Below are positions 7,818 to 62,100 of a DNA stretch of 64,000 nucleotides, piece by piece. The translations under genes and the position numbers were made by a program. The notes beneath the pieces are model-generated. The model made no database searches. It saw only the letters and a list, made by a program, of their open reading frames with translations, and was not told the DNA's origin. Origin of the DNA: a virus (Duplodnaviria > Caudoviricetes); the IMG/VR virus record IMGVR_UViG_3300028591_000180, positions 10,505 to 74,504 of that record; one strand, written 5' to 3'. Every line of letters begins with the position of its first letter. The stretch's first letter is position 1.

Positions 7818-9836
7818 ATGCCAATTAGTAGTTTAGATGAAATGCACAATGATTTCATGGTTTATGCAACTGAAGTAAATAACAACAGAGCTTTCCCTGA
7901 TGCTAGAGATGGACTCAAGCCAGGAATGAGAGCTGCTCTTTATACTATGTTTAGGAAAGGATTTACCTCTAATAAGCCTCACGTGAAGTCAGCTAAGATT
8001 AGTGGCGCAGTTATCGGTGAGCTGTGGCCACATGGGGATGCCTCAGTATATGAATCTATTGTTAGGATGTCACAAGACTGGGTTAATAATATTCCTGAAA
8101 TTGATTGGCATGGGGCCAATGGTTCATTATTAGGTGGACCTGAAGCTGCCTCATCAAGATATACTGAGTGTAGATTATCTACAGCTAGTGAAGATGGATT
8201 CTTCTCTAATATTAAAAAGAATACTGTTGATATGATACCTAACTTCTCAGAAGATGATGAATGGCCAGTAGTATTCCCAGCTATCTTCCCAAGATTATTC
8301 GTTAATGGATCACAGGGTATCGGCTATACAATTGCACAAGAGTGGGAACCGGGAAATTTAAATGAATTTGTTACTAAGGTAAAAGAGTATTTAAAAAATA
8401 AGACTATAACTTATTCTGGAATTTATCCTGATTATCCAACCGGTGGAGTTATTATTAATAAGAGTTCGATCGAAGATATTTATAGAACTGGCCGGGGTAC
8501 TATTATCCTTAGAGGTAAAGCTGAGATTGATGGCAATATCATTAAGATTACTTCTCTACCCTATCAAGTATATGTTGAGCCATTTATCACAGAAATTAAG
8601 GATTTAGTTAATTCAGGAAAGATTACTGGGATTGAAGATATTTGTAATAAATCAGGTGATCAAGGAATGTTAATTGAGATTGAGTGTGGTGATGATCCCA
8701 ATCTAGTTTTAGCTTCACTGTATAAGTTAACTGATCTGCAGGCTACGTTTTCAGCTAACCAGATGGCTCTAGTTAATGGAAAGCCTGAACTATTAAGCCT
8801 TGAAGACTACATTAGAGTTTATGTTAATCATAACTTAGAATGTATCAAAAGAGAATATCAGTTTGAAATCGAAAAAGCTAATTCTAGGCTTGAAATTGTA
8901 AATGGCTTAGTTAAAGCTCTAGTTATTATTGATGATATCATCAGGACTATCAAGGCAGCTAAAAGCTCAGAGGAAGCAAAGAATGATTTAGTAAAATTAG
9001 GTTTTACTAAGAATCAGGCTCAGGCAATCGTTGACATGAAGTTAGGCAAGTTAGCTCACTTAGAAGGAGTAGAGCTAAATAAGGAAAAGGCTGATCTTGA
9101 TAAAAAGGTAGCTACCTTTACTAAAATACTGTCTTCTCCTAAGCTGCAATCAAAAGAATTCCTGAAGAGATTAGATGATTTTACTTCTAAGTATGGATGG
9201 AACCGCAGAACAGAAGTGATAGATGTTGATATTAAAGAAGAGAAGAAAGCTACTAAGAAGGCTAAGGTTTCTACCGAACAGGTTATGGTTTGCCTTACTG
9301 ACCAGCATGAAATTAAGAAAATTTCTTTAGCTGAATATCGTCCACAAAAGGCTTTGAATAACCTGTGTTCTATTAAGGTTGGCTCTAAGGATAAATTTTT
9401 CTTAGTTTCTAATAAGGGTAAACTATACAAGTTACAAGCAAATAAGATCTCATTAAGTACAATGAAGTCATCAGGCACTTCAGTTGGTGAGCTCCTAGAA
9501 TTAGGTGAAAACGAAAGAATTCTGAAGATCTTCTCTGGATCTGAAGAAGAACCTTACCTGTTTATGATTACTGACAATGGTAATGTAAAGAAGATGGATT
9601 GCTCAGAAGTATTTGGAATTAAGAAATCTGGTACACCAATTATCAAATTACATGAAGAGAATCTATTCGATGTATATTTAGTTACAGATAATACAATTGT
9701 TACTGCTACTATTTCTAAACCAAAGACTTGTTCTATTAAGGTATCTGATTTCAAGTCTAAAGGAAAAAAGGCTGCAGGGGTTAGAGGATTTAAACTGAAG
9801 AAATATACCCTGATGTTTATATCTTTGCTAAATTAA
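7818..9836 (+). CDS. gyrA: type IIA DNA topoisomerase, breakage-reunion subunit (GyrA/ParC-like)
   Basis: RAFPDARDGLKP, PHGDASVY, catalytic SRYTE, degenerate C-terminal pinwheel blades. GGAGG SD before ATG 7818. Confidence 0.92.
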   Translation: MPISSLDEMHNDFMVYATEVNNNRAFPDARDGLKPGMRAALYTMFRKGFTSNKPHVKSAKISGAVIGELWPHGDASVYESIVRMSQDWVNNIPEIDWHGANGSLLGGPEAASSRYTECRLSTASEDGFFSNIKKNTVDMIPNFSEDDEWPVVFPAIFPRLFVNGSQGIGYTIAQEWEPGNLNEFVTKVKEYLKNKTITYSGIYPDYPTGGVIINKSSIEDIYRTGRGTIILRGKAEIDGNIIKITSLPYQVYVEPFITEIKDLVNSGKITGIEDICNKSGDQGMLIEIECGDDPNLVLASLYKLTDLQATFSANQMALVNGKPELLSLEDYIRVYVNHNLECIKREYQFEIEKANSRLEIVNGLVKALVIIDDIIRTIKAAKSSEEAKNDLVKLGFTKNQAQAIVDMKLGKLAHLEGVELNKEKADLDKKVATFTKILSSPKLQSKEFLKRLDDFTSKYGWNRRTEVIDVDIKEEKKATKKAKVSTEQVMVCLTDQHEIKKISLAEYRPQKALNNLCSIKVGSKDKFFLVSNKGKLYKLQANKISLSTMKSSGTSVGELLELGENERILKIFSGSEEEPYLFMITDNGNVKKMDCSEVFGIKKSGTPIIKLHEENLFDVYLVTDNTIVTATISKPKTCSIKVSDFKSKGKKAAGVRGFKLKKYTLMFISLLN

Positions 9837-9841
9837 ATATA
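9825..9841 (+). promoter_or_regulatory. putative phage late promoter motif TTGCTAAATTAAATATA
   Basis: Identical 17-mer also at 21028, 33518 and 54671, each just upstream of a gene start. Confidence 0.65.
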
Positions 9842-9865
9842 GTGGAATTATGAGGAGGCTAGTAT

Positions 9866-12800
9866 ATGCCGTTTGTTAAAAGAGCTAATACCCATCAGAC
9901 TCACTTTGAAGACCTAGTATTATTGGGGCCTGATGGATTAGAAGAATTAAATGATAAAATAGAAGGAACTATTGATACCTTAGAAAATAATAGTGAGAGA
10001 TTAAATCTTACTACCAAGATTGATGGTGCTCCTGCTGTTATTTGTTGGAGTAAGTTTGAAGGCTATCCAGATAATTCATGTTGTTTAAAGAGTGCTTTTG
10101 ATGCTAAGAAAAATAAGAAGATTTGTTCTACTCCTCAGGATGTTGACCTTTATTATGGAGATACACCAGAGAGAGCAGAAATGCTAAAAGATTGTTTAGT
10201 AATATGTCCATCCATTCCTGCAGGTGAAGCCTGGCAAGGAGATTGTTTATTTGTATCTAATACTAAAAAAGTAGAAAAGATAAATGGCAAAGAATACCTC
10301 ACCTTCATGCCGAATAAAATTATCTATGCTTTCTCTGAAGATAATCCTGGTTATGATGATGTGAAGAAAGCTTCATTTGGAATTGCTTTTCATACTATTT
10401 ACAAAGGGAACGGTGAGAATAGACAACAGTCATTCAAAGTTGATACCTCTAAGTTAAATACACCAGATGATTTCTATATTATGTCTCCAGCTTTAAATAT
10501 CCCAACAGACAAGAAAGTATTTAACCTTGATAAGGTTAAATCTCAGTTTGATAGGCTTGAAGATTTAGAACAGAAGTTATTATCTGATTATGACTATGAA
10601 GACTTAATTAATAATTCCTTATTTAGAGAGTATTGGGATACCTTTGAAAATAATTCTTTGGCCGACAAGAAGGCTATTACTATTAATGAAAATACTTTTA
10701 TTGAGGAATTAAAAGATTTTATTAAGAACGTAAGAGGTCCAGAGAAATTAGCTTCTAAAGTTAAGAAATTAAAAACTGAAAAGGGTATTGCTAATGCTAC
10801 TGAGAATTATAATCAAGAAATATTAGAACTTGAGGAAGTAATTGATAAGAACAGAGAATTACTTGTTAAATTAGTACAAACCCTTAATTGTGCTGCTACA
10901 ATTAAAATGTTATTATGGCAAGGATTTAAGCAAACTCAGTTTGATTATAATACTTTCTATCGTTCTAGAACTAAAGGTTATCTTCCAGGTGAAATGGAAG
11001 GTGTAGCTATGTCTGACCAGGATGGAAACATTGTTAAGATTGTTGACCGTAGCACTTTCAGTTCTTATAACAGAGACCCCGACATTATGTCTGGATTTGA
11101 ACACCCAGAAAATCTTACTACTGAACAACTATCATTTAAAGAAAGTTATAATGATGAACTAGTTGAATGCGGTATACAGCAACTTTGGGAAAAGTTCAAT
11201 AGATTATTAGAATCTGAACAGAAAACAGCTGTAGTAGCCTTTGGAAGAATGAATCCACCAACAATTGGACACCAGAAGCTAGTTGATACGATGGCCTCAT
11301 TAGCTACAGGTGAAAAGGCTAAATTATTCTTAAGTCATACACAGGATAAGAAGAAAAATCCATTGTCTTATGAGCAGAAGATCAGATATGCTAAAGAAGC
11401 TTTTGAACCGAAGATTGATGTAGTAGAATCACCTGCAAGAACCATCATCGAAGTACTGAGAGACTTATATTCTGACGGATATACAGACATCATTTATGTT
11501 GGTGGTGAAGACCGTATTGGAGGAGTCGATGATACCTCAGGTTTAATCATGAGATACAATGGACAGCCTGATAAGTCTGGAAATATTCCTTATGATTTTA
11601 ACTCAATTAAATTTAAGAGTGCTGGTGGTGGAGATGAAGGCGGGGACCGAAAAAAATTCACCTATGAGTATGTAAAACAAAACCTTGATAAATTAAACCT
11701 TGAAGAAATTGCTTCTGCTAGCTTAGTAAGAGAATGCGTTAAACGTGGTGATTTTGAATTATTTAAAAAACTAGTACCTTTCAATGAAGTTGATGCTGAA
11801 GCTTTATTTAATGAGATTAGAAGCTTCTATAAAGATAATGGACTGTTGGGTGAAAGTTTATTGACTGAGGAAAACAATCCTTCTATTTCAGTATTTCGAA
11901 ACTGGCTTAAACCGTATTTAGATCCAAAGCTTATTCAGATGGAAAATAGTAGACATTCATCAGCTGAGCTTTTTAGATTAAAGACCAATACTGAAAATCT
12001 TTCCTACGAAGATAAAGAAGAAGAGATAAAAAATTTAGTAACTAAAAGTATAAATAATGCTTCTTCAAATTTACCAACCCAATTAAAAAATATTCTATTA
12101 AATAATGTAAATATAATAGGATATAGTAATTATTCAGGTGAAGCAAATACATCTGGGAAGTATAAAGATTTTAAGATAGAGTTTATCTATCAAGATGACC
12201 AGGGAGATAGTAAAAAAGATTATTACTATATTTGCGTCAATCCAGGTGAAGTTAAATCAATGATTCCCAGTAAGGTAATGGAGAAAATAAATAATGTTAA
12301 TTATAAATCAATGTATAAATTTGTTTCTCCTAAAGCTCCTAACCGGGAAATACTAGTAAAGATTTTACAAGAAGCTTCATCATCCTCAAATGTTAGTTAT
12401 AGAGGAACTGTTAAGGATAATTTACTTAACAAAGGTAGCTTTGAAATATTATTCAAAACCAGAGATAGTGATGTATTAGAATTGATTAAATCAAATAGGT
12501 CTTTCACCATAGATTTTGCTGAAGTACTAGGATCAGTAGTGTTGGCTAATGCTGTATCACAAGATATTCATAATGAAGATACATTAATTTCTTTCCCGAC
12601 TGGAAGTAATGCTGAATTATTAGATTATGTTTTACATAATAGTAATTCTATTCTTGGGCCTGAGTTAAAAATATCAGCTAAAACAGGAATGGGTGGAGCA
12701 CCCTCTAGTGGAAGTTTAATCAACAGTATTGTAGAATATTATTCTGATAACAATGTACCTGAAGAATATAAGAGTGGTTATGACTTCTGTGTATGGGCTG

Positions 12801-13378
12801 AGAAGAATATTACTCGAAACTCAGGTGAAGATAGAGTAAATACTCATACAGGTTTTATAAATCTTTCTAAAGAGTTAATTTCTATAATATCAGGTAATAG
12901 AGATAGCTGGTCTAATCTATTAAAAATAGACCAAAATGATATTAATGTTATTAGGTCTATATATAATTTTAAGTTAAATAATTATAATGACATTGTTAAG
13001 TTATATGACTTAACTAATGGCTTGAGAATAAACGATAATTTCGGTAAACTGAGAAAGTCAATCTATGACATGGCTGAAAAAACAGGACATCTTGAAAAAT
13101 ATCTGGAATCAGTTAAGTATAAGATTTTAAGTACTATTATGGTTAATTATATAAATGACTCTGATAAATTAATGGATGATATAAATAATTTATTTAGGAT
13201 AGCTTATGGAACTCTTATTCAAATACATTTAGTAGACGATAATGATATAATAGAAGGAAACTTTAAGTTTTATACTCAAACAACTCAAACAGATAATTAT
13301 AGATTTTTACAAAATACTGGAATATCCTCTAAAGACTTCACCATGAATAATCAACGCTTAGCCATGAGGTTAAAATAA
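9866..13378 (+). CDS. multidomain protein: DUF6267-like N-domain + HxGH nucleotidyltransferase (cytidyltransferase) + possible PD-(D/E)xK-like domain
   Basis: HFEDLVLLG/TKIDGAPAVI/GEMEGVA N-domain; AFGRMNPPTIGHQKL (HxGH) with YVGGEDR; C-terminal DFAEVLG...FPTGSN..LLD...ISAK. Domains joined by xxE-rich linkers. Confidence 0.7.
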   Translation: MPFVKRANTHQTHFEDLVLLGPDGLEELNDKIEGTIDTLENNSERLNLTTKIDGAPAVICWSKFEGYPDNSCCLKSAFDAKKNKKICSTPQDVDLYYGDTPERAEMLKDCLVICPSIPAGEAWQGDCLFVSNTKKVEKINGKEYLTFMPNKIIYAFSEDNPGYDDVKKASFGIAFHTIYKGNGENRQQSFKVDTSKLNTPDDFYIMSPALNIPTDKKVFNLDKVKSQFDRLEDLEQKLLSDYDYEDLINNSLFREYWDTFENNSLADKKAITINENTFIEELKDFIKNVRGPEKLASKVKKLKTEKGIANATENYNQEILELEEVIDKNRELLVKLVQTLNCAATIKMLLWQGFKQTQFDYNTFYRSRTKGYLPGEMEGVAMSDQDGNIVKIVDRSTFSSYNRDPDIMSGFEHPENLTTEQLSFKESYNDELVECGIQQLWEKFNRLLESEQKTAVVAFGRMNPPTIGHQKLVDTMASLATGEKAKLFLSHTQDKKKNPLSYEQKIRYAKEAFEPKIDVVESPARTIIEVLRDLYSDGYTDIIYVGGEDRIGGVDDTSGLIMRYNGQPDKSGNIPYDFNSIKFKSAGGGDEGGDRKKFTYEYVKQNLDKLNLEEIASASLVRECVKRGDFELFKKLVPFNEVDAEALFNEIRSFYKDNGLLGESLLTEENNPSISVFRNWLKPYLDPKLIQMENSRHSSAELFRLKTNTENLSYEDKEEEIKNLVTKSINNASSNLPTQLKNILLNNVNIIGYSNYSGEANTSGKYKDFKIEFIYQDDQGDSKKDYYYICVNPGEVKSMIPSKVMEKINNVNYKSMYKFVSPKAPNREILVKILQEASSSSNVSYRGTVKDNLLNKGSFEILFKTRDSDVLELIKSNRSFTIDFAEVLGSVVLANAVSQDIHNEDTLISFPTGSNAELLDYVLHNSNSILGPELKISAKTGMGGAPSSGSLINSIVEYYSDNNVPEEYKSGYDFCVWAEKNITRNSGEDRVNTHTGFINLSKELISIISGNRDSWSNLLKIDQNDINVIRSIYNFKLNNYNDIVKLYDLTNGLRINDNFGKLRKSIYDMAEKTGHLEKYLESVKYKILSTIMVNYINDSDKLMDDINNLFRIAYGTLIQIHLVDDNDIIEGNFKFYTQTTQTDNYRFLQNTGISSKDFTMNNQRLAMRLK

Positions 13379-16124: not shown

Positions 16125-16775
16125 ATGAAAGTTTATTTAGCTGGCTCTATTTTTTATTATGGTGATGAGTTACGTAATAGAGAATGGGCAAAGAAAATTA
16201 GAGACCAATTCCCCGGTATTGATCTTTACTCACCAATTGAAAACACAGACATCAACGGTACTGAAGGCAAGAAGAAGTTTGCCGGTTCTAAGTTAATTGC
16301 TAATGGAGATAATCAGAGGTTAGATAATACTGATGTTCTATTGGCTTGTATTGATGGAGATGTTATTCCAAGTGGCACTAGTGCAGAAATTGGTGTAATG
16401 AGAGAAAAGATTCGTAGAGGAGATCATAAATACGTCATTGGTATTTGCACTGATAACAGAGAGTGCTCAAGGACACATAGTTTAGAGAAAGATCAGGGTG
16501 CGGCTGCAGACATTTGTGAGCAACAGTACTGCTATCAAAATCTCTATACGGTGGGTTTGATAAAGGAATCTGGCATCCTTGTAAATAACATTGATGATGC
16601 TATTGAGTTTATGAAAAAGATTGCCCCTGAATTTTTACAGGAGTTTGTAGACTCAGAACCCTGAGATAATGAAAAGATTTTTAATTTTCTAAAAGATGAT
16701 AAATCCTTTTGAGGTGAAGATGAAGAAGTTAAACAATACTCAGAAGGAATGCGGAGGGAAATATTAAATGGATAA
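16125..16775 (+). CDS. nucleoside 2-deoxyribosyltransferase family protein (TGA=Trp extended)
   Basis: MKVYLAG, YSP, D.LLA.IDG...SGT.AEIG. Reading TGA 16662 and 16710 as Trp extends it to TAA 16773-16775, overlapping the next ATG. Confidence 0.8.
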
Positions 16776-18012
16776 TTTAATTTATAAAATTGATGAATCT
16801 CCAAAGACATTAAAAGAATATCTATTATATGGTGCTCAGCAATGTCTTTCTATTCTTACTGCCACAATTCTTATTTCTACCATTTGTGGTACTAATGTGG
16901 CGGCTGGTTTTGTAGGAGCTGGTGTTGCAACAATTGTATTCTTAGTATTAACAGGATTTAAAGCTCCATTATTCTTTAGTAATAGTGGTTCTACCTGTGC
17001 TGCTGTTATTACTGCTTTGGCTTTAGGGCATGATTACACCGGTGTTATTCTTGGTGGTGTCACTATTTGTGTTATGAATACTTGTGCAGCTTTGATTACA
17101 AAGAAAGCTGGTTCAGGCTGAGTCAATAAACTATTACCACCTGTTGTTTCTGGTACGATCGTAACGATCATTGGTCTTAACCTCGCTGGTTTCTGTGCTA
17201 CCTATGTTGGCATGGGAGTTGAAGGTGAACTTAAGAGAGTAATTGTAGCATTCTGTACAATGCTCATTACAGTTTGTACAATGCACTACTCTAAAGGAAT
17301 GTTAAAGACCTTACCATTCTTAGTTGGAGCTTTAGGTGGTTACTTGATTTCTATCATCTTTGGACTAGTTGACTTCTCAGTTTTCAAAGACATTTCATTA
17401 ATTACACTTCCGGACTTTGCGTTTAAGCATATTGACTTTAAATTATTTGATTGGGCAACATTACCAACAATCATTGTGACATTTGGTGCTGTAAACCTTG
17501 CTAACTTAGGTGAGCATATTTCAGACATCTTAGCTGTAAGTACAGTAGTTAGAGAAGATCTTACTGAGAAAGTTGGCTTACATAAAACATTCTTAGGTGA
17601 TGGTATCGCTGACTTAATTGGTACATTTATTGGTGGCCAGCCTACTACTACTTATTCAGAATCATTATCTACCATTGCTGTTTCTAGAGTAGCATCAACC
17701 AAGGTTATTTTAGTGTCTGCCGTTATGACTGTCTTATTAGGTTTCTTTGGTCCATTACAGACATTAATTATTAGTATTCCTGATTGTGTCTTTGGTGGTA
17801 TTGCTCTAGTAGCTTATGGTATGATTGCTGCAAGTGGTGTTAGAATTCTGACGACAGTAGATTTCAATAAACAAAGAAATGTTATTATTACAGCTACGAT
17901 GTTAACAATCGGTGTTTCTGGTGTAGCTTTTAATATTGGCCAGTTTACTCTGGGAGCTATAGCCTTAGCTATGGTATCTGGGCTGGTGATCAATTTATTA
18001 TTAAAAGAATAG
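16768..18012 (+). CDS. uraA: NCS2 uracil/xanthine permease (UraA/PyrP-like)
   Basis: Track fragments 16768-17121 and 17212-18012 are in frame and joined by TGA 17119 (GSG-W-VNKLLPPVVSG). EHISD, GDGIA, PTTTYSE and GGI motifs. Confidence 0.88.
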
Positions 18013-20683: not shown

Positions 20684-20908
20684 GTGAAATTAACTGAGGT
20701 CGTTAGCTCAAATATTAATAAAATTGGATATGAAAATAATAACTTATTAGTAGAATATAAATCAGGGGTTAAGTATCAGTACAAGGAAGTACCACAAGAA
20801 TTATATGAGAAATTAATTTCCGCGGAATCTAATGGTAGATTTATGAATTCTGAGATTAAAGGTAAGTTCGAATACATTAGAATTGAAGATACCCCGAAGA
20901 ATCTTTAG
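20684..20908 (+). CDS. KTSC domain protein
   Basis: VVSSNINKIGY...YQYKEVP..LY..L..AES.GRFMN..IKGKF. Confidence 0.85.
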   Translation: MKLTEVVSSNINKIGYENNNLLVEYKSGVKYQYKEVPQELYEKLISAESNGRFMNSEIKGKFEYIRIEDTPKNL

Positions 20909-21000
20909 CCCTGTAGATTCTTCGATATACCCTGTAGATTCTTCGAGTTACCCTGTAGAATCTACAGCCAATAATATAATTATAATATAGATATAATTAA
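20891..21000. repeat. three 21-bp-period direct repeats followed by an AT-rich tract
   Basis: CCCTGTAGA at 20909, 20930 and 20951 (first two continue TTCTTCGA); an inverted part-copy CGAAGAATCT near 20895; near-pure A/T tract 20970-21000. Confidence 0.7.
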
Positions 21001-21027: not shown

Positions 21028-21044
21028 TTGCTAAATTAAATATA
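21028..21044 (+). promoter_or_regulatory. putative late promoter TTGCTAAATTAAATATA
   Basis: Identical 17-mer upstream of 21069. Confidence 0.65.
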
Positions 21045-21068: not shown

Positions 21069-24000
21069 ATGAAAATATTAGTAGAAAATATAGACGGCGG
21101 AATTACCTATAAAGAAATATACGAGAATCTAAAGGAAGTAACTTCTAATTTTTCAGTTGAAGAAGGTATCTTTAAATGTGATTCTCTTTTTGAGGCTAAT
21201 ATCGCTAAAGAAATTTTAAATCGGGTGTATTCTGATGTATATACAAAACCATTAGACATGAATGATGATTTTGATTTGTATTATTCAGTAGTTTTTTCTA
21301 ATAAGATTTCTGAAGAATATAAGGATTTGGAAATCCAACCAGATAAGGATCCATCTGGTACTCCAATCGGTAATGGTACAGGCTTAGGAGAACAGTTAAT
21401 AGAAAAGATAGTTAAAAAATCAGACGGATACTATGTTCAATCTGAGAAGGGTAAAAACTTAGGTGGACCTTATTCAAGGGAAGATGCTGAAAAGAGGTTA
21501 AAGCAAGTGGAATATTTTAAACATAAAGATGAATCATTAAATGAAGCTGATGATGAAGAAGTAGAAGATTATGAAGAAGATCTTCTTGAATTCTTTGACG
21601 AAGAATTATATAATACTTATGAAAATGATTTATCAGCGGCTACTAAAAAGGAATTACTCGCTGATGCTAGAGAAGCTTTTAGTGATATACCTGAAACTAT
21701 ACTTAAAAAGGTCTTTAAAAAATGGTTAAAGAGTGCTGCTAAAGGAGTTGAAGAATACTCCTCAGAGCAGAAAAAATGGGCTCGTGATGGTCACAATTGG
21801 GTATTAGGTATTTTAAATGACACACAGAAGTGGATTAATGCCTTAAAAGAAAAAGCTGAAAAATTAGTTGGTCAAAGAGAAACCATGTATACAGGAGGAA
21901 CAATAAAGGGTATTAAAGATTCAAAAAATATTTTATACAAAGGCGTTCCTATCTATGCAGTTACTTATGAAATTCCTGACTCTCCTAGGCCAGAGCGTAG
22001 AGAAATAACCTATTTCTATTTTCCTTATATTAATAATTATATTGATGGGCCAGTAGTAAAAACCAGATATTCATTGGGAAGTGCGCATGAAGAGATTGAT
22101 GATCTTCTTGAAACAAATAAAGTTACAGCTAAAGATGAATCATTAGATGAAGCAGCTACTCCACTTAAGTATCAAGTTGAAGTCACAGTAGATGGTGAAT
22201 ACGATGCTGACATAGATGAATACTGGATCCCAGATAATCTTCCTGATTTATTACAAGGTTATTATGGTCAGGAGCCTGTAGATCGTTCTCAAAAGCAATG
22301 GCATTTATATTATGCTTTTGCTACTAAAGAAGCTTGCGATAAGTTTGTCAACGCGGTGACTAATATGGGCTATGTAGTTTCAGATATTAATGATGATGAA
22401 GTTGGATATGATTTTGAAGAATCATTAAATGAAGCGAAGAATAAAAACTATAGAGTTGAGCTATATTACTATGACAATAATAAACCTGACGATGTAATTT
22501 ATTTTGAAAACCTGAAAGTAGCATATAATTTCTGTAATAATAAAATTTCAGACAATATTGCCTATGATGATGGCCTTACTGGTATTTTAGTGTTTAATGA
22601 AGCTAAAGATAAATTATTAAACACCTGGCAAAATGGTGGTAGAGGCTGGGAAAATAAATCCAAGGAGTTAATTAAGATGAATGAGTCATTAAATGAAGCT
22701 AAATATGGGGCTTATGATAATACACCTGAAGATGTTATTATGACTGACTTAGGAATTGGCCCAAAGAAGAGATTTAGAGTTAGATACTATAGTAGAGGCA
22801 GTTCAATATTATCTTCTATTGTAGTAGAAGCTAACACAAAAGAAAACGCTTATAAAGAAGCTATTAAATTAGGTATTAGTGAGTTCGCCATTAAGAGTAT
22901 AAACGAAATTAAACCAAAGGCTCAATCTACCAATGAATCTTTAAATGAAGAAGTAAATTTAAAACCTGGAGATGTTAAGTGGTCTTGGTGGCTTCATAGC
23001 TATTTAATTTATCAGGGTTATAATAAGATAACAAATAAGTATAAATTTGAAGATTTTGGAGATAGATTAATTTATCTTACCGCAGAAGAAGTTTCAGACC
23101 TAGAAGACAAACCTAATAAGAATGAATCATTAAATGAAGAATATGAGGCAGGCGTAAAGATACCTAAAAAATATTTATTAGCTAATGGTTATACAGAAGA
23201 AGAAATTAATGATTTACCTAATACATTATATTCTAAGTATACTGTAGATGTTAAAATTGCACCTAATGATATTATAATTACTGATAACCACCACGGTTAT
23301 AACGTTTCATATTTTATGCATTATTCTGACTTAGCTAGATTCGCTAGAGAAATTAATGAATCAATAAATGAAGGTGTATCTCCAGAACAGGCAGCACAAC
23401 TTAATAAAGAATGTGATGAAATTTATAAATATCTTTCTGAAAACGGCATACATGAGGACGTTTGATGGGATGATTCAGGTAGAATAAATATTGAAATTGA
23501 ATGGGGTGACTGGAAACACGAACACCTTAGATGTAATAGACTTATGACGATGCTTGGTTATGAGTGTGTTGATGAAGTTGTAACAGATGAAGATGGTAGT
23601 GATACTTATTCTGCTCGCCATATTTATAAAAAGATAATGGATGAATCATTAAATGAAAGTGATAAACCATCATTCCTTAATTATATGTATGATATTTTTG
23701 GTGATGACGACCGTTGGGAAGAAAACCCTGATGTAGAAGATTATTACCGCCAAGAATATAACACAAAATATGATAGTGATAGTGATTCTGATAACTTTAT
23801 TATAGACCAAACTTGGAGTGATGTGCACCCATCAAATAATCTTAATGATTATTCAGAACCAAAAGAAGAAGAACCTGAAGAGTACGAAATGACCGAAGAA
23901 GATTATGCTAATATGTTAGATTCTTATAATCTTACTTTAGAAATGTCTGATGAAGAAGCTAAAACCCAGATTGAAAAAGAATTTGCCGGAATGTTAAGTT

Positions 24001-24290
24001 GGGGTGGTATTTCTAAAGAAGACTATATCGAAGGTCAGAAAGAAATTTTTGACACCTGGAAGATGTTAAAAGAAAGAGATCAGAAACCAGCTCCAACTAC
24101 TGAAGCTCTTAATGAAGAAGATGAAGAGCCTGAAGCCAGGTGCCCTAATTGTGGCGAGGAAATGAATTTCATTGGTTATCAAGGCCATGACGAAGAATTT
24201 AAGTGCCCAATTTGTGATGTGTATTTCTATTATGACCCAAATAAAGAAAAACTTATGACTGCTGTCGAATATGAAGACATGCATCATTAA
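21069..24290 (+). CDS. 1073-aa acidic modular protein with nine ES(L/I)(N/D)E-type linkers; putative virion internal polyprotein
   Basis: Track ORFs 21069-23465 and 23544-24290 are in frame and joined via TGA 23463 (EDV-W-WDD). Linkers at 21531, 22137, 22419, 22683, 22935, 23124, 23358, 23643 and 24102. Confidence 0.75.
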
Positions 24291-24305: not shown

Positions 24306-25529
24306 ATGATAAAAGATTTTGATAAATTAAAATATTTATTAAGTGAATTACTTACAAAATACCGAAACGAAATAAGAAACGGTGATTTTGATAAGGTAGT
24401 TTATTCTTTATGGTGAAACTCAGATAGATACAATGGGAAAGATTTTAAGGGTAAAACTTTCCTTGGATATTGTAAAAGTTTGGGGATGCTTAGCCCACAT
24501 CAAGTTATAGTAGAAATAAATAATACTTGCGGTACTAATTTTAAAGATAGGTTATTAGATAAAGATAATAAAGACTATTATTATTTAAAGTTTATTTATA
24601 CTTGATATGATAGCTTACATCCTGAGTGGGGCCCCATTTCTAGAGAATATTGGTTACAGGCCTATTCAATTAATGGTAAATTACAAGCTCAATTTTGAGA
24701 TATAACTACTATTGAAAATAGGCTGTGTTTTGATTCTGAAAGTGAAGCTAATAATTTAATTAATAGGATAGAGTCATTAGGCCATTTACCACAGGATCCA
24801 AAGAAGAGACTAGACCTTTCAAAAATGAAGTGGAAAACGGTTAAAGTAAATAAAAATTCTAAAGTTTATGAAAAACTTGGACCTATGGTAAAGAAGTTAG
24901 TATATATGAATTTAAGTACTCTTCATGAACCAGTATCTGAAACTTTACCAGAATTTTATGGATATATTTACTCAAGTAGAAATAATGGTGAGATACCATT
25001 TAGTGATGATGATTTTGTAGCCGAGAGTTTAAGTGAAGCTGTTTCAAACAGTTTATATAACGGCGGTTTGAAAGATAAGAAAGCCAAATTGGATAATGAG
25101 AAAATGAGTATTAAGTCATTAACAGAGAAAACGGATTTAACTTATGAGCCTGAATTGGTCCAGAAGTTAGTTAATAAATATGCAACTCCTGAGTTACGTA
25201 AAAGTGATTTAGATGATATCTGAGAAGAAGTTATGGAAAAATATGATAATGTTGATTTAGCCGAAGAAGTTTATGATTCTCTCCATGCTTGGCTTGGTGA
25301 TATGTGGAATGAATCTTTTAAAGCTGACAATATTAAAGATGAAGAACCTGAAGATTGGCTTACAGAAAAGAGAAATTCTTGTATACGTGATTATAGGATG
25401 TGGGCTGGTCTTGGTGATGACGAGTTAATCACTGAAGATAAAATTGATGAGTGGGCTTTAAATAGAGTAAGCTGTAACAGTAATTACGACTATGATGATT
25501 TAAAAGAAGTATTACTGTCAAATAAATAA
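24306..25529 (+). CDS. hypothetical protein (407 aa, four TGA=Trp)
   Basis: ATG 24306 open through TGA 24414, 24603, 24696 and 25221; absorbs track ORFs 24825 and 25233 and fills an otherwise empty 530-bp gap. Confidence 0.75.
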
Positions 25530-51861: not shown

Positions 51862-52698
51862 ATGTCTGAAGAAAATAATGAATTCGGATTTGGTTGTTTA
51901 CCTGGAAAGATAGACTTAAGAGATTATAAAATTAAACGAGAGGTAGCTATGGCTTATAATTACCCTGAGACTTTTTCTTTAGAGCATCCTCCAGTAAAAA
52001 ACCAAGGAGCTGTAGGATCTTGTGTAGCTCATGCTACATCTGAGATTCTTGAGTCTCATTTAAAAGAATATAAGAAATTATCTACAAATTTTTTGTATGG
52101 CATTCATTATAAATTATTTGGTAGCAAGGGCCCTGGGATGTATTTACGAGAGGCCTGTAAGATAGCTAAAGATTATGGTGACCCAGAAGAAATTTTTTGT
52201 AAAGGAAATACTGAAGTTCCACATGTTTATTCAATGGCTGAGAATTCTTTTAAGGATCCATCCGTTTTAGAAAATGCTAATAAGTATAAAATTAATAGCT
52301 ATGTTAAACTTAGGACAGAAAATGATATTAAATATTCATTAATGTATCATGGGCCAGTATTAATCAGTGTTGAATGATTTTCTGATTATGAGTTTAAATA
52401 CTCAACTGGGATTTTATCTCCTGGTGTAAAAAGTGCTGGGCTGCATTGTATTATGATTTATGGGTGAAATGAAGATGGTTGGTTATGCCAGAATTCATGG
52501 GGAGAGCTCTGAGGTAAAAACGGTTGTTTTGTTCTTCCTTATACTTATGAAATCAATGAGGCTTATGCCTTAATTTCTGATCCTTCTAGAGACGATATAA
52601 ATAAAGTTAAAAGGTGTAAGCTTTTAGATTTTATGTATAAAATATTAAATAATTTAATAAATTGGTTTGTTGATGTATTTAGGTGACTTAAGAAATAA
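51862..52698 (+). CDS. papain-like C1A cysteine protease (TGA=Trp x4)
   Basis: NQGAVGSCVAHA (Gln/Cys), HCIMIYG-W, GWLCQNSWGEL-W-GKNG. The catalytic His and Asn lie beyond the first TGA. Confidence 0.88.
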
Positions 52699-54705: not shown

Positions 54706-56124
54706 ATGTCATCAATTACACAAGAAGTTATAAATGGACCTGGTAGTGGTGGTGGACCAACCATCTCTTTTACAGTTTCTGATAATGATTCTTTAATTGG
54801 TTGTTTTAATTTTGTTTATGATAATTTGAATAAGGTTAAAGCAAAGGCTGGCAGTGACAAGGGTACACTTCTTGGTCCTAACATTATAAAGAATCCAATA
54901 AAAAAAGTTACTTTTAAAGATGTAGCTGATTCTAGCTTAAAGAGAAAAGTAAGGAAGGATATAGGAGAAGATAGTATTAGAACTACTATTATTTCAAACT
55001 ATAATCCTTATTATTGAAATTATAAACAGAAAAATAGTGTCGGAATTACAGGTATTAATAAAGGATGTAGAGTTAATACTTTAGATGAAATTACTGGAAA
55101 ATCAGTGTGGTGATTCCCTTGGCCAAAATCAGGTACTAATGGAATAAAATATAAAGAAAAAGATACTAAGATAGTATCACAATTAGTACCTAAGCCATCA
55201 ATTCCTAACTGTGTAGGATGATGCTATGGGAGAATTAAAGAAATTTGGTGTGTAGCCTATGATTGCGGATTCATCAGAAACAAGGCTGGATCAACTACTG
55301 TATATCAAGTAAGGTTACCTAACGGTGAATATAAAGATATTACTGGGCAGATTAAAATGTCAGCGGCTGGTGATATTCCTTCAGGAAATGCTGGTAATTG
55401 GTATACTGCTAAGTTATGGAGTAATCAGGCAGGTTTCTTTAAAACTAAACCTGAAGGGTCAGATAGTTACCGTCCTTTACCTGGAGCTGTTATCTGCTGG
55501 AAGAATAAAAGTTGTGGTCATGTAGCCTTTGTAGAAGCAGTTGTTAATTATGGCCGAGATGATGAGTATATTATAATATCAGAATCTTCATACCCTAATA
55601 CTAAATCTGGGTATAATTATGGAATTAAAGAATTAGTAAGATACCGCAAGGTTGATAGGTGAAATGCTTATTCTCCAAAAAGGAAGGGTGTTCCTTATAA
55701 TTATAGTGGTAATACTTTTAGAGGATTTTTATATTCACCTGTTTGTCAATTATCAACTGTTAAATTTCCCTGTGAACAGGAAGTACATGAAGATCCTGAT
55801 ACAGGTAGTATAATTCCAGGGTACCCCGGTTCTGGAGCTGTAATAGGTGATGATATGACTCCTGAAGAAAAGGGTACAGTTGGTGAGCTCATCGGTTCTC
55901 TGTCAGGAACTACTATTTATAAAGATATTGAATTAAATTCTTTAGTAAGAATTGAGTGAGTTGGAAATGAAAGAGACGACGGCTCAGGGAAACGAGTTAA
56001 CTATTTATGGTTAACCGGTGAAGTATTATCTATTGATTTAACAAAGCCATACCCATACGGCGTCAGTGTCGATGAGGAAAAAATAAATGGCTATTATAAG
56101 CGAGAAGATTTGAAAGTAGTATAG
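54706..56124 (+). CDS. CHAP-domain peptidoglycan hydrolase (TGA=Trp x5)
   Basis: PNCVG-W-CYGR (Cys), GNAGNWY, PGAVICW, GHVAFVE (His), ISES. TGA at 55015, 55111, 55219, 55660 and 55957; TAG 56122-56124. Confidence 0.82.
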
Positions 56125-56132
56125 GTTAAAAT

Positions 56133-59100
56133 ATGGCAATCAAAAATTTAGATATTCAATTAAAAGATAAAGACTCTAATAACTTATTCCCCTTAGCTCA
56201 TAAGGATGCTTTAGGTCGAGTTATTTCAGATACGTATCTTACTTCAGTAGACTTTTCTGATATGGAAGGAAGAGTAGAAAACGTTGAAAATTTAGTTGAG
56301 AATGCGGTATCTGGTATTGGTTATACTTATGCTAAAACTACTTCTGCAGCTCTACCTCCATCACCTAGTGATTTTATCTATACAGAAATGCCCGACGTTG
56401 AAAGAGGATATTATATCTGGCGTAAGTCTGACGTATCTAAGGTTAGTGGAGACTCTAGCGATACAATTGAAATGATCCAGGGCTTAGATGGTCTTTCTTC
56501 AAATATAACTTCAATTGAGATTAGATATGCCTATTCCGACCAGGGTACTGATCCTACTAGAATTAGTAGCAGCAGCTGGCAGTCATCTATTCCAAGTGTA
56601 GCCAGTGGATCATATCTCTGGACAAGAGTTATTACTAACTACTCAGTTGGCTCTCCAAGTACTTCATATTCTGTTGCTTATCAGGGACTAAATGGTGATC
56701 CAGGCGTATCAATTTCAAGCGTTGAAAATCATTATTTGGCTACATCTTATTCTAGTGGTGTTGGTAAGTCTGATGGTGCTTGGGGTCAATGGTCTCCAAA
56801 TGTTCAAACTATGGATTCTACTAACCAGTATCTTTGGAATTATGAATCTGTTTATGACTCAGATGGTAATAAAATAAGTGAAACTGAACCAACTATTATT
56901 GGTAGATATGGTAAAGATGGACGAGGAATTACTTCAGTTGTTGAATTTTATCAGATATCTGATAGCTCAACAGACCCACCTAAGACATGGGTTAACCCGT
57001 CTGTATCTCCTATGCCAATTACTACTTCATCAAATCCTTATCTTTGGAATTATGAAGTAATTTATTATACAGAAGGTAACCCTGTAGCTACAACTCCTCA
57101 CGTTGTTGGTGTTCATGGTGTATCAGCAGTAGCTTATAGCTTATTGGCTAATAATTATGTTTTAATAAGAAATCAGGATAGTTCGATTTCTCCTACTTCA
57201 GTTACTTTCAGCTTAACTTCTAAGACAGGAACAGGTACTCCTTCTCCTTATTCAGGAAGATTTAAGATTTATGCTTCAACTGATAATTCTACTTGAACTT
57301 TAGCCTATGATTCTAATAGTGATGAAAGTTCACATACCTTTTCATTATCTACAGATTTACCATCAGGAATAACTACTTCTAATCTAACTGGAATAAGGGG
57401 CGAAGCCTATATGGCAGGCGGATTCTCTTATTTAGTTGATAATCAGGATATTGTTGTTATTCAAGAAGGATGGAATGGTTTAAACGTAGCTACGGCTTAC
57501 TTATATAAGAGAGTACCTGAAAGCTCAGAAGGTATTACAGGTCCTACTGGTACCTTAAGATATACTTTTAATACTGGTATACTTTCAGCCGATAATTCTT
57601 CTTATTTTAATGGCTGGACACAGACTATTCCAGATGATAATGGTGATAGCTGTTATGTTATTTTGGCTACTGCTAGTTCTGCAGATTCTTATGATGATAT
57701 TACAACTACCGAGTGGAGTACTCCAGTTAGCTTTGTTAAAAGCGGCAATGACGGTGAAAACGGAACAAATGGATACAACACCGCAACTATTAGTTTTTAT
57801 AAGAGAAGCTCATCTTCATTAGCTTCAGAGAGACCATATTCAAGTACTGTAACTTATACATTCTCTACTGGACAACTGAGTACATCATCTGACCAGGGGT
57901 GGTTTAGAAATATCCCTGTTTCTGATGGAAACCCTTGTTATATTAGTAGTGCTACTGCAGTAAGCAATCAAAATACTGATGAAATTACTGTTTCTAATTG
58001 GTCTGCTCCAGTTTTAATTTTAGAAGATGGCAAAGATGGTATGGATGGTGCCCATATTTGGACTACAAATTCAGCACCTTCTACTCCTGATTATACTTTT
58101 ATTATTTCTAATTTAACTGGAGATACTAGTGCTGATGTTCAAGTAGGAGATATTATTTTCTATTCTACTTATAAATATACAGTTACTTCAGTTTCATCAG
58201 CTACCTGCTTGGCCGGGAATAGAGTTAATCTTAAAGGAGCTACTGGATCTGCTGGTTTAAATAATGCTACAGTCTATCTATATAAACGAGCGGAATCTTC
58301 TGAGACTCCAGCTGCTCCTACCGGAAATACTACTTATTACTTTGAAACAGGAGTACTGTCGGGTAACTTAGATGGCTGGTCACAAGAAATTCCTGAAAAC
58401 ACTGGTGATCCATGCTGGGTAATTTTGGCTACTGCTTCTTCAACAGAAGATCATGACGTTATTAACGGTACTGCTAGCGGTGATAGCCAGTGGAGTGTTC
58501 CTGTTGAATTTATTGTTAACGGAGCTGATGGCTTAGACGGACTTGATGGCTACAACACTGCTACTTTATATTTATATCAAAGAAGCGCAACTGAGCCAGT
58601 TATTAATAGTACTACAATGCCTACTATTACCTATACTTTTGCAACGGGAACTTGAAGTGTAGTCCCAGACGGCTGGTATAGGAATGTACCTGATAGTAAT
58701 GGAAATCCTTGCTGGATGACTACTGCCAGTGCTATTAGTAGAAATTCTTCTGTTGAGATTACCCATAACATGTGGAGTGAGGCTACTAAGCTAGCTACTG
58801 ATGGATATAATAATGCTTCTATCTTCTTGTATAAGAGAATAAATCCTTCTACAATTGATTCTAGCGGAATAGCTGGCCCCTCTGGTACTTTAACTTACAC
58901 TTTCTCAACTGGAGAATTATTGCCAGATTCTTCAAGGAATGGTTGGTCACGTGAAGTACCTCCAGAAGGAGTAAATAAATATCCTTGTTATTTCATTGTA
59001 GCTACGGCCAGTACTTCTTCTGATAGTGATAATATTACTACTGATGAATGGACTGAGGCGGTTGAATTCTCTTCAAGTGGAATTAATACTGCTACCATAA

Positions 59101-62100
59101 ATTTATATAAGAGATCATCAACTAATTTAGTAGGACAGAGACCCTTCAGTGGATCTTCTTCTACTTATGATTTCTCTGATAATTTATTAACTAGATCTGG
59201 TGGATTAAATAGCTGGAATACATCAGTACCTACTGCAGATGGAAATCCTTGTTATGTAACTAGCGCTACCGCTGTTTCAAGAGGAGATACTGCTACTATT
59301 GATGATACTAAATGGTCTGATGTTACAAAGTTGGTAGAAGATGCTTGCTCTGTAATGTTAACCAATGATAATCATACTTTTGCTGGCACTTCTACTTCTG
59401 CTATAGCTTCTAGTGTTAATACTTCTGTATTAGCCTATAAGGGATCCATTCAGGTAAAAACAATTATCAATAATATTACAACAGATAGTGCTACTGCTAC
59501 TGATATTAGTACTGCAGTTGGTGCCCCTACTGGGATGACAGTTACTGTTGTACATTCAAATTCAACACAATCATTAATAACTGTCTCTGTTAGTACTAGC
59601 ATGAATACTAGACAGGGTGTTTTAACTATACCTGTCAAGGTAGATAATACTACTTATAATCTAAATTTCTCATACTCAGTAGCTTTAGCTGGTAATGATT
59701 CAACTTCTTATAATTTAAGTTGTAGTAGTTATATTATCGTTAGAGATAAAAATAATAATCTTTCTCCTGGAGCTATTACTTTTACAGGATATTACCAGAG
59801 GGGAATTAACAGTAAAGCTAGATACAGCGGAAGATTTAAGATTTATACTTCTACTGATGGTGGATCTACTTGGAATAATGTTTCTTCTGCTACTTCAACT
59901 TCTGATGAAGAGACCAAGACATATACCATACCAGCTAACTTGAAATCCAGTTTAACTGATCTCAAGTGTGAGTTATATCAAAGTGGTGGAACATCTGTTT
60001 TATTAGATACTCAGAATGTATCCGTAGTAAATGATGGAGAAGATGGTGAGCCATCCTATAATGTTGTCTTAACTAATAGTAACCATACCTTCCCAGCTGG
60101 TACTTCTTCTGCTATTGGTGGAAATACTTCTATTGGAGTACTGGGATATAAAGGAGCTACCCAGATAGATACTAATATAGGTACTATTACTGGTAGTAAT
60201 TCTGATTACCCAAGTAAGATTTCTGCTCAAATTAGTAATAATGATACTACTTCAACAACTATTACTGTTACCGCAAGTTCTACTCTAAGTCAGGATGGAA
60301 CCTTAACTATTCCGGTAACCTTAGACGGAAGCCATACCTTCAACATGACATTCTCTTATTCTTTAGCTTTCCAGGGGACTCCTGGTAGAGATGGAGAATC
60401 AGGTAAAAATGTTGCTACTGTTTATCTATATAAAAGAGCTGACTCTGCTTCTGATGCAGGTCTCCCTCTTGGTACATTAACTTACCATTTTGATGACGGT
60501 ACTCTAACCGGTAGTACTTCAAACTTTAATGGATGAAGTCAATCAATTCCTGCAGATAATGGTAAAATTTGTTGATTAATAGTTGCTACCGCATCATCTA
60601 CGGCTCCAATTTTAATTGATGGTATTGAAAGGACGGAATGGACTCAAACACCAATTAAATTAGTCCAGAGCGGATCTAATGGCGTTTCAATTACTGATGT
60701 AGTAGAATTCTATTTAGCTAGTGCTGATTCTAGTGGTGTTACCATTAATACCCCAGGATGAGTTACTGACCCTACTCGTTCAGAAGCTACTATTTCTCCT
60801 ACACAGCCTTATCTTTGGAACTATGAAGAAGTCTGGGGAAGTGATGGTAACCTTAAAAATACTAGGAGTCCTGCAATTATCGGTAGGTATGGATTGAATG
60901 GTAATGAAGGCGTAGGAATACGTAGTATTGAAGAATATTATGGAGTTTGATCAAGTAATACTAGTTGGACAGGAATTAGTTGGATTCCTGGATCTGAAAT
61001 TTCTGATTTGCCGCCTACTTCTCGTGAATTCCCTTACCTTTGGAATTATGAGGCAATTACTTATACTAATGATAATATAGTTACTACAGCTCCAGTAGTA
61101 ATTGGTACCCATGGCGTAGATGGAATTAACGGATTAGATGGTTTTAATACAGCTACAGTTACTTTATATACTAGATCACTTACAGCTCCTGAAAAACCTT
61201 ATACTCCAGAGTCTTCTGAAGATACAGGTATTTTTAGTTATGATTTTTCAGCTGGTACTTTCACTCCAGCTTATTCAAATATTTGGAGTACTGATATCCC
61301 AGAAGATAATAGCAGTACACCTTGCTGGTCAACCAATATTACTATTATTAGTAGAAATAGTGTTGCTTCAAATCTTTCATATACTCAATGAAGTACTCCA
61401 GTAATTGTGTACATGAATGGAACTAGCGGTATTAACTATTGGGGAAATAGTAAACCTTATCTGGCTTTAGCTGATTATAGCTCTCCTACTAGATATTTAT
61501 TTAAAGAACAGGGATATACTTTTTCTAGGCCATCATCTTCTTATTCTGACTCTTTAAAAGTTTTTGAAAACGAATATTATCAATTAACTTTCAAGGCTAG
61601 TAGAACTCAGGCGGAGGGCAGCTCTGTTCAACTTCAGAAGCCTCAGAGATACCCGAACACTCTTTATGATTACATGCCTGTCCTCGAGTCATTAAAAGCT
61701 GGAGATATAATTACCATTTCGTATGAAGTAAATACTACTCAGCCAATTCAGGCTGATGCTTATATTCTTGCTCAATTAGTTGGTTCAACGGCTATATCGA
61801 ACACGACTGAGAGAAAAACTATAAGTAGAACTAATGAATGAGTAAGATATTCTGGCTCGCTAACTGTATCTCAAGAATTAATTGATATTAGAGATGGAAC
61901 TGACAGTACTCCAGCTGACAGATTAATAGCCGGCCTTAGACTATTTGATGTAGTAGGACTTACTCCAGCTTCAACTGAAGTTATAATGAAATTACGTAAC
62001 ATCAAATTTGAGTTCGGTCCAGTTGCAACTCCTTGGTCTGCTATGCCAAATGACTTAGTAGCCTCAGAAGTTGTATTGAGTTCAAATGGTTACACCTTCC

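Follow-up and report, generated by a model that had tools for sequence, protein, structure and literature searches.

An open reading frame (ORF) in a 64,000-nucleotide stretch of phage DNA (the window) encodes a string of small, mutually unrelated proteins that are joined in frame by one short linker and are exchanged between related phages at these linkers. The window comprises the bases 10505-74504 of one IMG/VR virus contig of 74.5 kb, which is about 49% complete. The ORF lies at 21069-24290 on the plus strand and is translated into a single chain of 1073 amino acid (aa) residues when TGA is read as tryptophan. That this protein is an array of modules, or cassettes, which are exchanged at the linkers is solid on the evidence of the compared sequences. 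Processing of the chain at the linkers is likely. Of the explanations considered, the best is a full model in which the protein is loaded into the prohead, cut by an S77 protease and delivered to the next host; in our view it has an even chance of being correct.

Nine linkers of the type E[SA][LI][ND]E were located in the translation at aa 155, 357, 451, 539, 623, 686, 764, 859 and 1012, in agreement with the original prediction that had been made from the window. Six of them read ESLNE and the others ESLDE, ESINE and EALNE. No linker-type peptide was found in other frames of the window. When the plus-strand ORFs of the contig (22.6k aa) were searched with ES[LI].E, eight matches fell into the array, one into the next ORF (ESLSE) and one into a 639-aa protein; the expectation, estimated from the residue frequencies, is about 0.06 per 1073 aa. 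The consensus of 76 distinct linker contexts was [D/N/G/E]-E-S-L-[N/D]-E, followed most often by A. The segments were said to be unrelated to each other, and no match between modules was obtained by BLAST at E <1e-5, which also ruled out hidden internal repeats. The predicted number of about ten modules held as far as the nine linkers are concerned and was corrected at both ends of the chain. Segment 1 is composed of three units, a leader, a GTP[LI]G motif and a KGKNLG mini-domain, and the segments 9 and 10, which flank EALNE, stay together in every relative seen. EALNE was not seen as an exchange boundary, and relatives have EALYE or SLKED at this place. The following ORF at 24306-25529 (407 aa, 4 TGA) has a homologue in the locus L031 that is fused in frame to the array, and the array may effectively extend over both ORFs.

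The reading of TGA 23463 as tryptophan, which had been proposed earlier, was confirmed by segment 8, which can be aligned over its full length, and across this codon, with about 100 stand-alone homologues. Translation with table 11 gives the two ORFs 21069-23465 and 23544-24290, and the region might accordingly consist of two ordinary genes (798 and 248 aa) or a pseudogene with TGA 23463 as the stop codon. This is very improbable. The invariant core of cassette 8 would then sit in an untranslated gap between the TGA and the next ATG, so that the chain at 21069-24290 must be read through, and the protein P0053, which is 98% identical, reads through the same position. In addition, code 4 restores other proteins of the contig to full length. 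The Xan_ur_permease is complete only with code 4 (profile 3-385/389), the giant tail-like protein (>2622 aa) has nine stretches that match phrog_38044 and span eight TGAs, and the papain-family and leucine-rich repeat (LRR) proteins are also obtained in full length. A stop at TGA 23463 with two separate genes was rejected on account of these full-length proteins and the continuity of cassette 8.

The late region of the contig is tiled by code-4 ORFs. In-frame TGA codons were found at 16768-18012, 51862-52698, 54706-56124 and 56133-64000 of the window and in others; they are sparse in the replication genes (none in gyrase, RecA and NrdD) and dense in the late genes. No tRNA gene, including a suppressor tRNA, was found in the 74.5-kb contig. 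We conclude from the sequence that TGA is a sense codon for tryptophan in this phage. Gut phages with a TGA-to-Trp recoding (Agate-like) have been described by Borges et al. (preprint 10.1101/2021.08.26.457843), with genomes of about 127-154 kb in which TGA at Trp positions is concentrated in structural and lysis genes. The recoding seen here appears to match these phages: TGA occurs in frame at Trp positions, and the complete related genome G001 has 138.7 kb.

The exchange of cassettes was followed in related loci. The array is the gene after RecA-KTSC in the window (1073 aa), in L006/G001 (1039 aa), in L030 (1325 aa) and in L031 (1390 aa), and arrays are present also in L008 and L029. The positional orthologues after RecA-KTSC differ in cassette content and order. 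Matches comprise whole modules with 85-98% identity end to end, while the neighbours differ. Cassette 4 corresponds to module 4 of L008 with 92% identity over 83/83 residues. Cassette 3 has different neighbours in L029, where it is module 6, and its DNA homology block (1068-1371 of the ORF) spans from linker to linker. The DNA homology blocks end at most 6 nt from a linker, and 43 of the 98 internal homology breakpoints were found within 6 aa of a linker, compared to 14% expected (p ~1e-12, which is indicative only, as the breakpoints are not independent). The module content of orthologues therefore varies at linker boundaries, and the proposal of an in-frame cassette array is strongly supported by end-to-end modules with differing neighbours and by DNA breaks at the linkers.

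Free-standing small-protein forms exist for segment 8, for the KGKNLG unit (aa 113-154) and for the N-terminal leader. The leader was found in L006, L030, L031, an upstream ORF of L008 and P0002/5/7/9/14/15, and stands alone in P0112 and P0064. AlphaFold predicted an alpha/beta fold for it with a confidence (predicted local distance difference test, pLDDT) of 78-92, and a separate run was confident over aa 12-80; the fold search gave generic matches only (Alba/IF3-C-like, Z <=6). In L008, the leader ORF (9226-10017) and the array ORF (10001-11767) overlap by 17 nt in different frames; the overlap may be due to a frameshift or to an assembly error, or the two ORFs may be separate genes. The leader is followed at aa 84-112 by a motif with the pattern YKD[LF][DE]FQ.[DN]KNP.GTP[LI]G.GTG[LF]GE. 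The data set has 21 copies of this motif, all in arrays or leader proteins and sometimes two in one protein, and it is modelled with a pLDDT of 39-67. Could this junction motif be a targeting peptide? The adjoining KGKNLG mini-domain (pLDDT 80-90) is 60-76% identical to a unit of about 45 aa that is fused to many unrelated proteins and stands alone in P0143, P0186 and P0194. The unit, KGKNLGGPY...AEKRLKQVEYFKH (45 aa), was observed in fusions with DNA ligase, DUF2213 and 2H phosphoesterase and in stand-alone phage proteins of 52-68 aa; it looks like a mobile mini-domain.

The homologues of cassette 8 have 75-160 aa and an invariant WGDWKH core. A ferredoxin-like alpha-beta-beta-alpha-beta-beta fold was predicted for it with a pLDDT of 86-98, and the fold search returned only generic ferredoxin-like matches (Z <=8). 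The pLDDT was 76-96 over aa 941-1008 of cassette 9 and 83-94 for cassette 10. For the whole chain the mean pLDDT was 52.8, with segment 8, the end of segment 9 and segment 10 as confident regions. Every linker was placed by AlphaFold at a domain edge with a pLDDT below 55, and confident domains occurred only between linkers, so that in the models no linker lies inside a single fold. The matches of the long model in BFVD were meaningless. Among the arrays of relatives, that of L029 begins with a module that is a complete PemK/MazF toxin domain (profile 3-102/109, above the cut-off) and ends at the first linker, and those of L008 and L031 have NTP_transf_2 (nucleotidyltransferase) modules. Pfam and PHROGs searches with the whole array protein and with each module gave nothing except weak Zn-ribbon matches on cassette 10. 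GenBank phages gave just two marginal single-module matches, the IMG/VR searches with the array protein only the widespread KGKNLG unit or G001 again, and the protein atlas, with the homologue P0073 as the query, only a 'hypothetical' cluster. In conclusion, the linkers lie between autonomous units.

The linker had been thought to be conserved also as a 15-bp DNA repeat. Four exact copies of the 15-mer GAATCATTAAATGAA were indeed found at 21531, 22419, 23124 and 23643, that is in four of the six ESLNE linkers (p ~1e-3), and serine is encoded by TCA in seven of the eight ES linkers, where the background is 0.31 (p ~1.5e-3). Conservation as a DNA repeat was nevertheless an overstatement in view of 31 linkers from six arrays, in which the codons vary: serine was TCA in 19, TCT in 11 and TCC in 1, and leucine TTA in 25, CTT in 4 and CTC in 1. 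AGY codons for serine were absent from the linkers of the six arrays, compared to 26% in the background, and the codon choice tended to be uniform within each array. After the five other arrays had been added, strong selection at the DNA level was unsupported. Most of the signal seems to be explained by constraint on the amino acids, by AT-rich codon usage and by descent of the linkers from a common ancestor or their local homogenisation. When it is read with a shift of one base, GAATCATTAAATGAA (e.g. at 21531-21545) gives CAT TAA ATG; this stop-start look-alike is probably a by-product of the Leu-Asn-Glu codons.

The candidate cut site was compared with known head proteases. The T4 protease gp21 cuts after L/I-X-E, and its relatives in giant phages likewise cut after Glu (PMC9026906, PMC5694885). 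All nine linkers fit (L/I)-x-E followed by a small residue. Neither head genes nor an S77 protease were found in the window's own contig (49% complete). An S77 domain (PF03420) was detected above the cut-off in G001, G002, G003 and G004, which are related genomes of at least 60% completeness; the S77 prohead protease also matches phrog_207 (4.8e-29). The search for a prohead protease that had been suggested was thus successful in the relatives and negative in the contig itself. G001 is a syntenic relative with a terminal overlap of 1,147 bp, which points to a complete genome of about 138.7 kb, and encodes a terminase, a portal, a 603-aa S77 protease-scaffold fusion and a gp23-like capsid gene.

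The capsid proteins, examined in G001 to G003, contain at aa 46-50 the sequences FINE/AF (G001), YLNE/AF (G002) and FMNE/AF (G003), where the slash marks the putative cut. This (L/I/M)-N-E/A-F site is located two residues before a conserved AAG motif, which in a weak alignment falls close to the N-terminus of mature T4 gp23. In the G001 protease, VESLDK, TESLNK, EESLND and DLNES follow directly after the catalytic domain, and this tail holds three of the seven ES[LI][ND] motifs of the whole genome. The degenerate joints of L006 keep (L/I)-x-E (HINE/G, EVLKE/A, ALTE/E and YLTE/S). In the near-identical P0053 linker 7 is ESLNK, and the preceding INE is kept. The complete genome G003 has an S77 protease and a 7-linker array (ES[LIF][NK]E) that starts with MSYLTE/AF. 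Sites near the N-terminus, namely LVE at aa 4-6 in the window, ILTE/A in L006, TLNE/L in L008 and MSYLTE/AF in G003, are suggestive only. A hydrophobic-x-Glu rule fits every case, with the scissile bond as a putative assignment. Cleavage by the prohead protease, as originally suggested, has therefore circumstantial support from the S77 protease in relatives, the matching capsid and protease sites and a shared promoter motif.

The window also encodes a papain-family C1 peptidase. This enzyme is absent from G004 and from the complete, array-bearing G003, which weakened it as a dedicated processing enzyme. At aa ~228-234 (window 52540-52560) it contains YEINE/AYA, the same kind of site as the capsid propeptide, and may be the substrate of a protease in its own right. 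In G001 an interruption was found in the gp23-like capsid gene (L026 16014-19874, equal to G001 136014-139874): the N-terminal exon is at 136045-136257 and the rest starts from about 138805, with two homing-endonuclease ORFs between them. These are probably intron-type insertions.

The timing of expression was approached with the promoter-like 15-mer GCTAAATTAAATATA. Exact copies occur in the window at 9827, 21030, 33520 and 54673, with one further copy with a single mismatch at 46628, and in G001 at 2578, 5521, 75149, 78028, 91178, 126471 and 134149. They are always on the plus strand, 16-40 nt before start codons, and lack a -35 element; a sigma-70 scan upstream of the array called no promoter. 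The motif precedes the array gene in both the window and G001, and in G001 it also heads the S77 protease/capsid operon, the terminase-portal operon and genes adjoining the capsid gene. Since the DUF6267 fusion gene also has it, the motif marks a transcript class and not only structural transcripts. It is a candidate for a phage-specific (late) promoter class, and the array would then be co-expressed with the head genes. The array gene is the first in a run of TGA-bearing genes, and the equivalent runs in L006 and L031 include a holin-family gene.

These results suggest the following model. The array gene would encode a late-expressed cargo polyprotein of a TGA=Trp phage of about 140 kb with a T4-type head. 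The leader domain, the GTP[LI]G motif and the KGKNLG mini-domain would serve as an N-terminal address, followed by about nine small proteins that are unrelated, fold independently and are connected by [D/N]-E-S-L-[N/D]-E-[A/E/S/G] linkers. The polyprotein would enter the prohead core, where, as the head matures, the S77 protease would cut each L-x-E linker behind its Glu. The small proteins set free in this way would leave with the DNA at the next infection and act as host-takeover or counter-defence effectors, as the MazF-like RNase and nucleotidyltransferase modules in the arrays of relatives may indicate. The short conserved linker would double as an in-frame joint at which recombination adds, deletes and swaps cassettes. 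In its widest form this amounts to a translated 'protein integron', in which one linker is both the cut site of the head protease and the recombination joint, and shuffled effectors, including toxin-antitoxin-type RNases and nucleotidyltransferases, are loaded behind a single address and delivered to the next host; to this reading we give somewhat less than an even chance.

Several observations weigh against a capsid-loaded cargo. Without head genes and S77 in the contig itself, the link to the protease rests on relatives with 40-60% protein identity. In the N-terminal region no homology to a T4-like/IPIII capsid-targeting peptide was recognised. The invariant E-S before L-x-E is absent from the known gp21 logo, L-x-E is short and E/L/N-rich sequence is common in an AT-rich phage, and the ESLNK of P0053 has no second Glu, which makes the scissile bond uncertain. 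GCTAAATTAAATATA also precedes genes that look non-structural, such as the DUF6267 fusion, and most cassettes were left without an assigned function by Pfam, PHROG, atlas and fold searches. The capsid-loaded, linker-cut polyprotein was nevertheless favoured because of the module exchange at the linkers, the S77 and capsid sites in the relatives and the shared promoter-like 15-mer.

It is rather unlikely that the protein works intact as an uncleaved multidomain 'polyvalent' protein, with linkers that are recombination joints spread by copy-and-paste descent or uniform spacers. The linker serines are all TCN and never AGY, and the homogeneous codons of each array suggest that the linkers descend from a common ancestor. 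Phages are known to have polyvalent proteins in which 2-15 unrelated domains are combined, and the virion RNA polymerase of N4 is packaged unprocessed (PMC5512222). However, a spacer does not need an invariant E-S-L-N/D-E, and the degenerate joints have still retained their (L/I)-x-E. The cassettes also occur free-standing, and no hallmark polyvalent domain (MuF, zincin-like peptidase) was found in the Pfam/PHROG searches of the window modules. MazF normally acts as a free dimer, and its presence as a module speaks against an intact chain. A processed polyprotein that is not virion cargo is quite unlikely. The array would then be a device to express many small proteins at equal levels from a single late transcript, with the chain cut in the cytoplasm by another protease, either an unrecognised phage enzyme, the C1 peptidase or a host protease. 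Papain-type enzymes prefer a hydrophobic P2 residue, which S-L-N/E would fit, the C1 peptidase is a late TGA-bearing gene that is present also in the array-bearing G001, and the cassettes resemble ordinary small cytoplasmic phage proteins. Against this, the array and S77 occur in G003 without Peptidase_C1, the same kind of site is found in the capsid propeptide and in the protease's own tail, and toxin- or takeover-like modules that are made late are best explained by delivery to the next cell.

Among known systems, the internal proteins of the T-even phages and the polyvalent proteins come closest. Internal proteins of T4 are injected and block restriction systems (PMC9026906, PMC12373910). 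Like the gp21-processed internal proteins (IPI, IPII, IPIII, other Ips and Alt), the array belongs to a clade with a T4-type head, an S77 protease and a gp23-like capsid protein. In both cases diverse small non-structural proteins are each adjoined by a short conserved peptide ending in (L/I)-x-E, expression is late (predicted for the array) and the repertoire varies between related phages. Unlike the array, the T-even internal proteins are separate genes, each with its own N-terminal targeting peptide of 10 residues, whereas about ten proteins are fused here in frame behind a single leader with the longer, near-invariant ESLNE linker. Sequence similarity of the array to the T4 targeting peptide or to any internal protein was not found.

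With the polyvalent proteins (Iyer et al. 2017, PMC5512222) the array shares many unrelated effector-type domains in one polypeptide and extensive mosaicism, and it has their trait of 2-15 unrelated domains in mosaic architectures. Delivery with the DNA and proteolytic release of units have been proposed for them (PMC5512222). They depend on zincin-like or papain-like peptidase domains within the chain, and their domains are not separated by a uniform linker, whereas the array has no embedded peptidase, very small cassettes (58-197 aa) and the same motif at every joint, which matches an external head protease. The hallmark domains zincin-like MPTase, MuF and DarB-type helicase/methylase had no Pfam/PHROG match in the window modules, and relatives showed only PemK and NTP_transf_2. 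In the giant phages phiKZ, 201phi2-1 and SPN3US, a prohead protease related to S77/S80 recognises a three-residue motif, present at several sites per substrate, and cuts it after Glu, and the cargo is ejected into the host (PMC5694885, PMC10052503). These cuts mostly remove propeptides of single proteins, and none of these substrates was described as consisting of unrelated stand-alone proteins strung together by identical linkers.

Viral polyproteins (of RNA viruses and pp220/pp62 of ASFV) and nematode polyprotein allergens resemble the array in that one product has repeated short consensus sites and yields many mature proteins, with cleavage of the array being predicted. They belong to eukaryotic viruses or hosts and have a fixed unit order, whereas order and content of the arrays vary freely between close relatives. 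In T4-type PeSL cassettes, conserved boundary sequences mediate module shuffling. There and in integron attC arrays, as in the array, a short repeated sequence at the cassette boundaries coincides with recombination breakpoints. The PeSL and attC boundaries are intergenic elements that function as DNA or in regulation, whereas the array boundary is translated, keeps the frame and is constrained mainly at the protein level, with no integrase or attC-like structure involved. An in-frame train of stand-alone proteins with one uniform linker of the head-protease type was not found described in the literature searched.

If the model is correct, the array would be a compact and evolvable way to pack many pre-made effectors into the head and would extend the idea of the T4 internal proteins from single genes to in-frame cassette trains. 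Dozens of cassette families, mostly without known function, would be listed as candidate injected host-takeover or counter-defence proteins, and [D/N]-ESL[N/D]E would be a sequence rule for finding such cassettes in metagenomes. The head protease of the clade would gain a natural and unusually explicit substrate consensus. The uniform linker and the leader might be used as building blocks to load capsids with foreign proteins, as has been done with the T4 targeting sequence. Recombination at translated joints, which the array demonstrates, is a clean case for studying mosaic protein evolution.

Table 1. Coordinates of the array, its cassettes and linkers, and related features in the window
Feature	Position	Strand	Remark
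Promoter-like 15-mer GCTAAATTAAATATA	21030..21044	+	25 nt before ATG, without -35 element
Array polyprotein ORF, 1073 aa	21069..24290	+	TGA=Trp
Leader domain, aa 1-83, conserved array head	21069..21317	+	LVE at aa 4-6
Second conserved junction motif YKDLEIQPDKDPSGTPIGNGTGLGE, aa 84-112	21318..21404	+	predicted disordered
KGKNLG...RLKQVEYFKH mini-domain, aa 113-154	21405..21530	+	beta-hairpin plus helix
Linker 1 ESLNE	21531..21545	+	exact 15-mer
Cassette 2, 197 aa	21546..22136	+	no homologue among the compared arrays
Linker 2 ESLDE	22137..22151	+	
Cassette 3, 89 aa	22152..22418	+	98% identity, 89/89 aa, L029 module 6
Linker 3 ESLNE	22419..22433	+	exact 15-mer
Cassette 4, 83 aa	22434..22682	+	85-92% identity end to end: L008, L031, L006, P0002, P0013
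Linker 4 ESLNE	22683..22697	+	
Cassette 5, 79 aa	22698..22934	+	missing between cassettes 4 and 6 in L006
Linker 5 ESLNE	22935..22949	+	
Cassette 6, 58 aa	22950..23123	+	76% identity to modules of L006, L030, P0060
Linker 6 ESLNE	23124..23138	+	exact 15-mer
Cassette 7, 73 aa	23139..23357	+	matches P0058 (136 aa, 70% identity), P0061
Linker 7 ESINE, INE before (tandem INE-S-INE-G)	23358..23372	+	ESLNK in P0053
Cassette 8, 90 aa, WGDWKHEH...EEDGSDxYSA family	23373..23642	+	~100 stand-alone homologues
In-frame TGA = Trp, aa 799, in cassette 8	23463..23465	+	
Linker 8 ESLNE	23643..23657	+	exact 15-mer
Cassette 9, 148 aa: acidic stretch then helical bundle	23658..24101	+	87% identity to L029 module 9
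Linker 9 EALNE, divergent codons GAA GCT CTT AAT GAA	24102..24116	+	LxE site
Cassette 10, 57 aa, CPNC/CPIC zinc ribbon	24117..24287	+	weak Zn-ribbon Pfam matches
Next ORF, 407 aa, 4 TGA	24306..25529	+	ESLSE linker at 25023-25037
Papain-family C1 peptidase, 4 TGA	51862..52698	+	rival candidate protease

The contig has about 33% G+C, and every gene is on the plus strand. It encodes NrdD, gyrase B/A, the DUF6267 fusion, a nucleoside salvage set, RecA and lysis genes, and further BspA-type LRR proteins, the papain-family peptidase, a CHAP protein and the giant tail-like protein. The DUF6267/cytidylyltransferase fusion (window 9866-13378) contains GESLLTEE between its domains at aa ~660. Four copies of CCCTGTAGATTCT were observed at 20892-20963, between the KTSC gene and the promoter motif of the array, where they overlap an inverted repeat. 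The last three copies have a 21-bp spacing, and two of the copies extend to 21-nt units.

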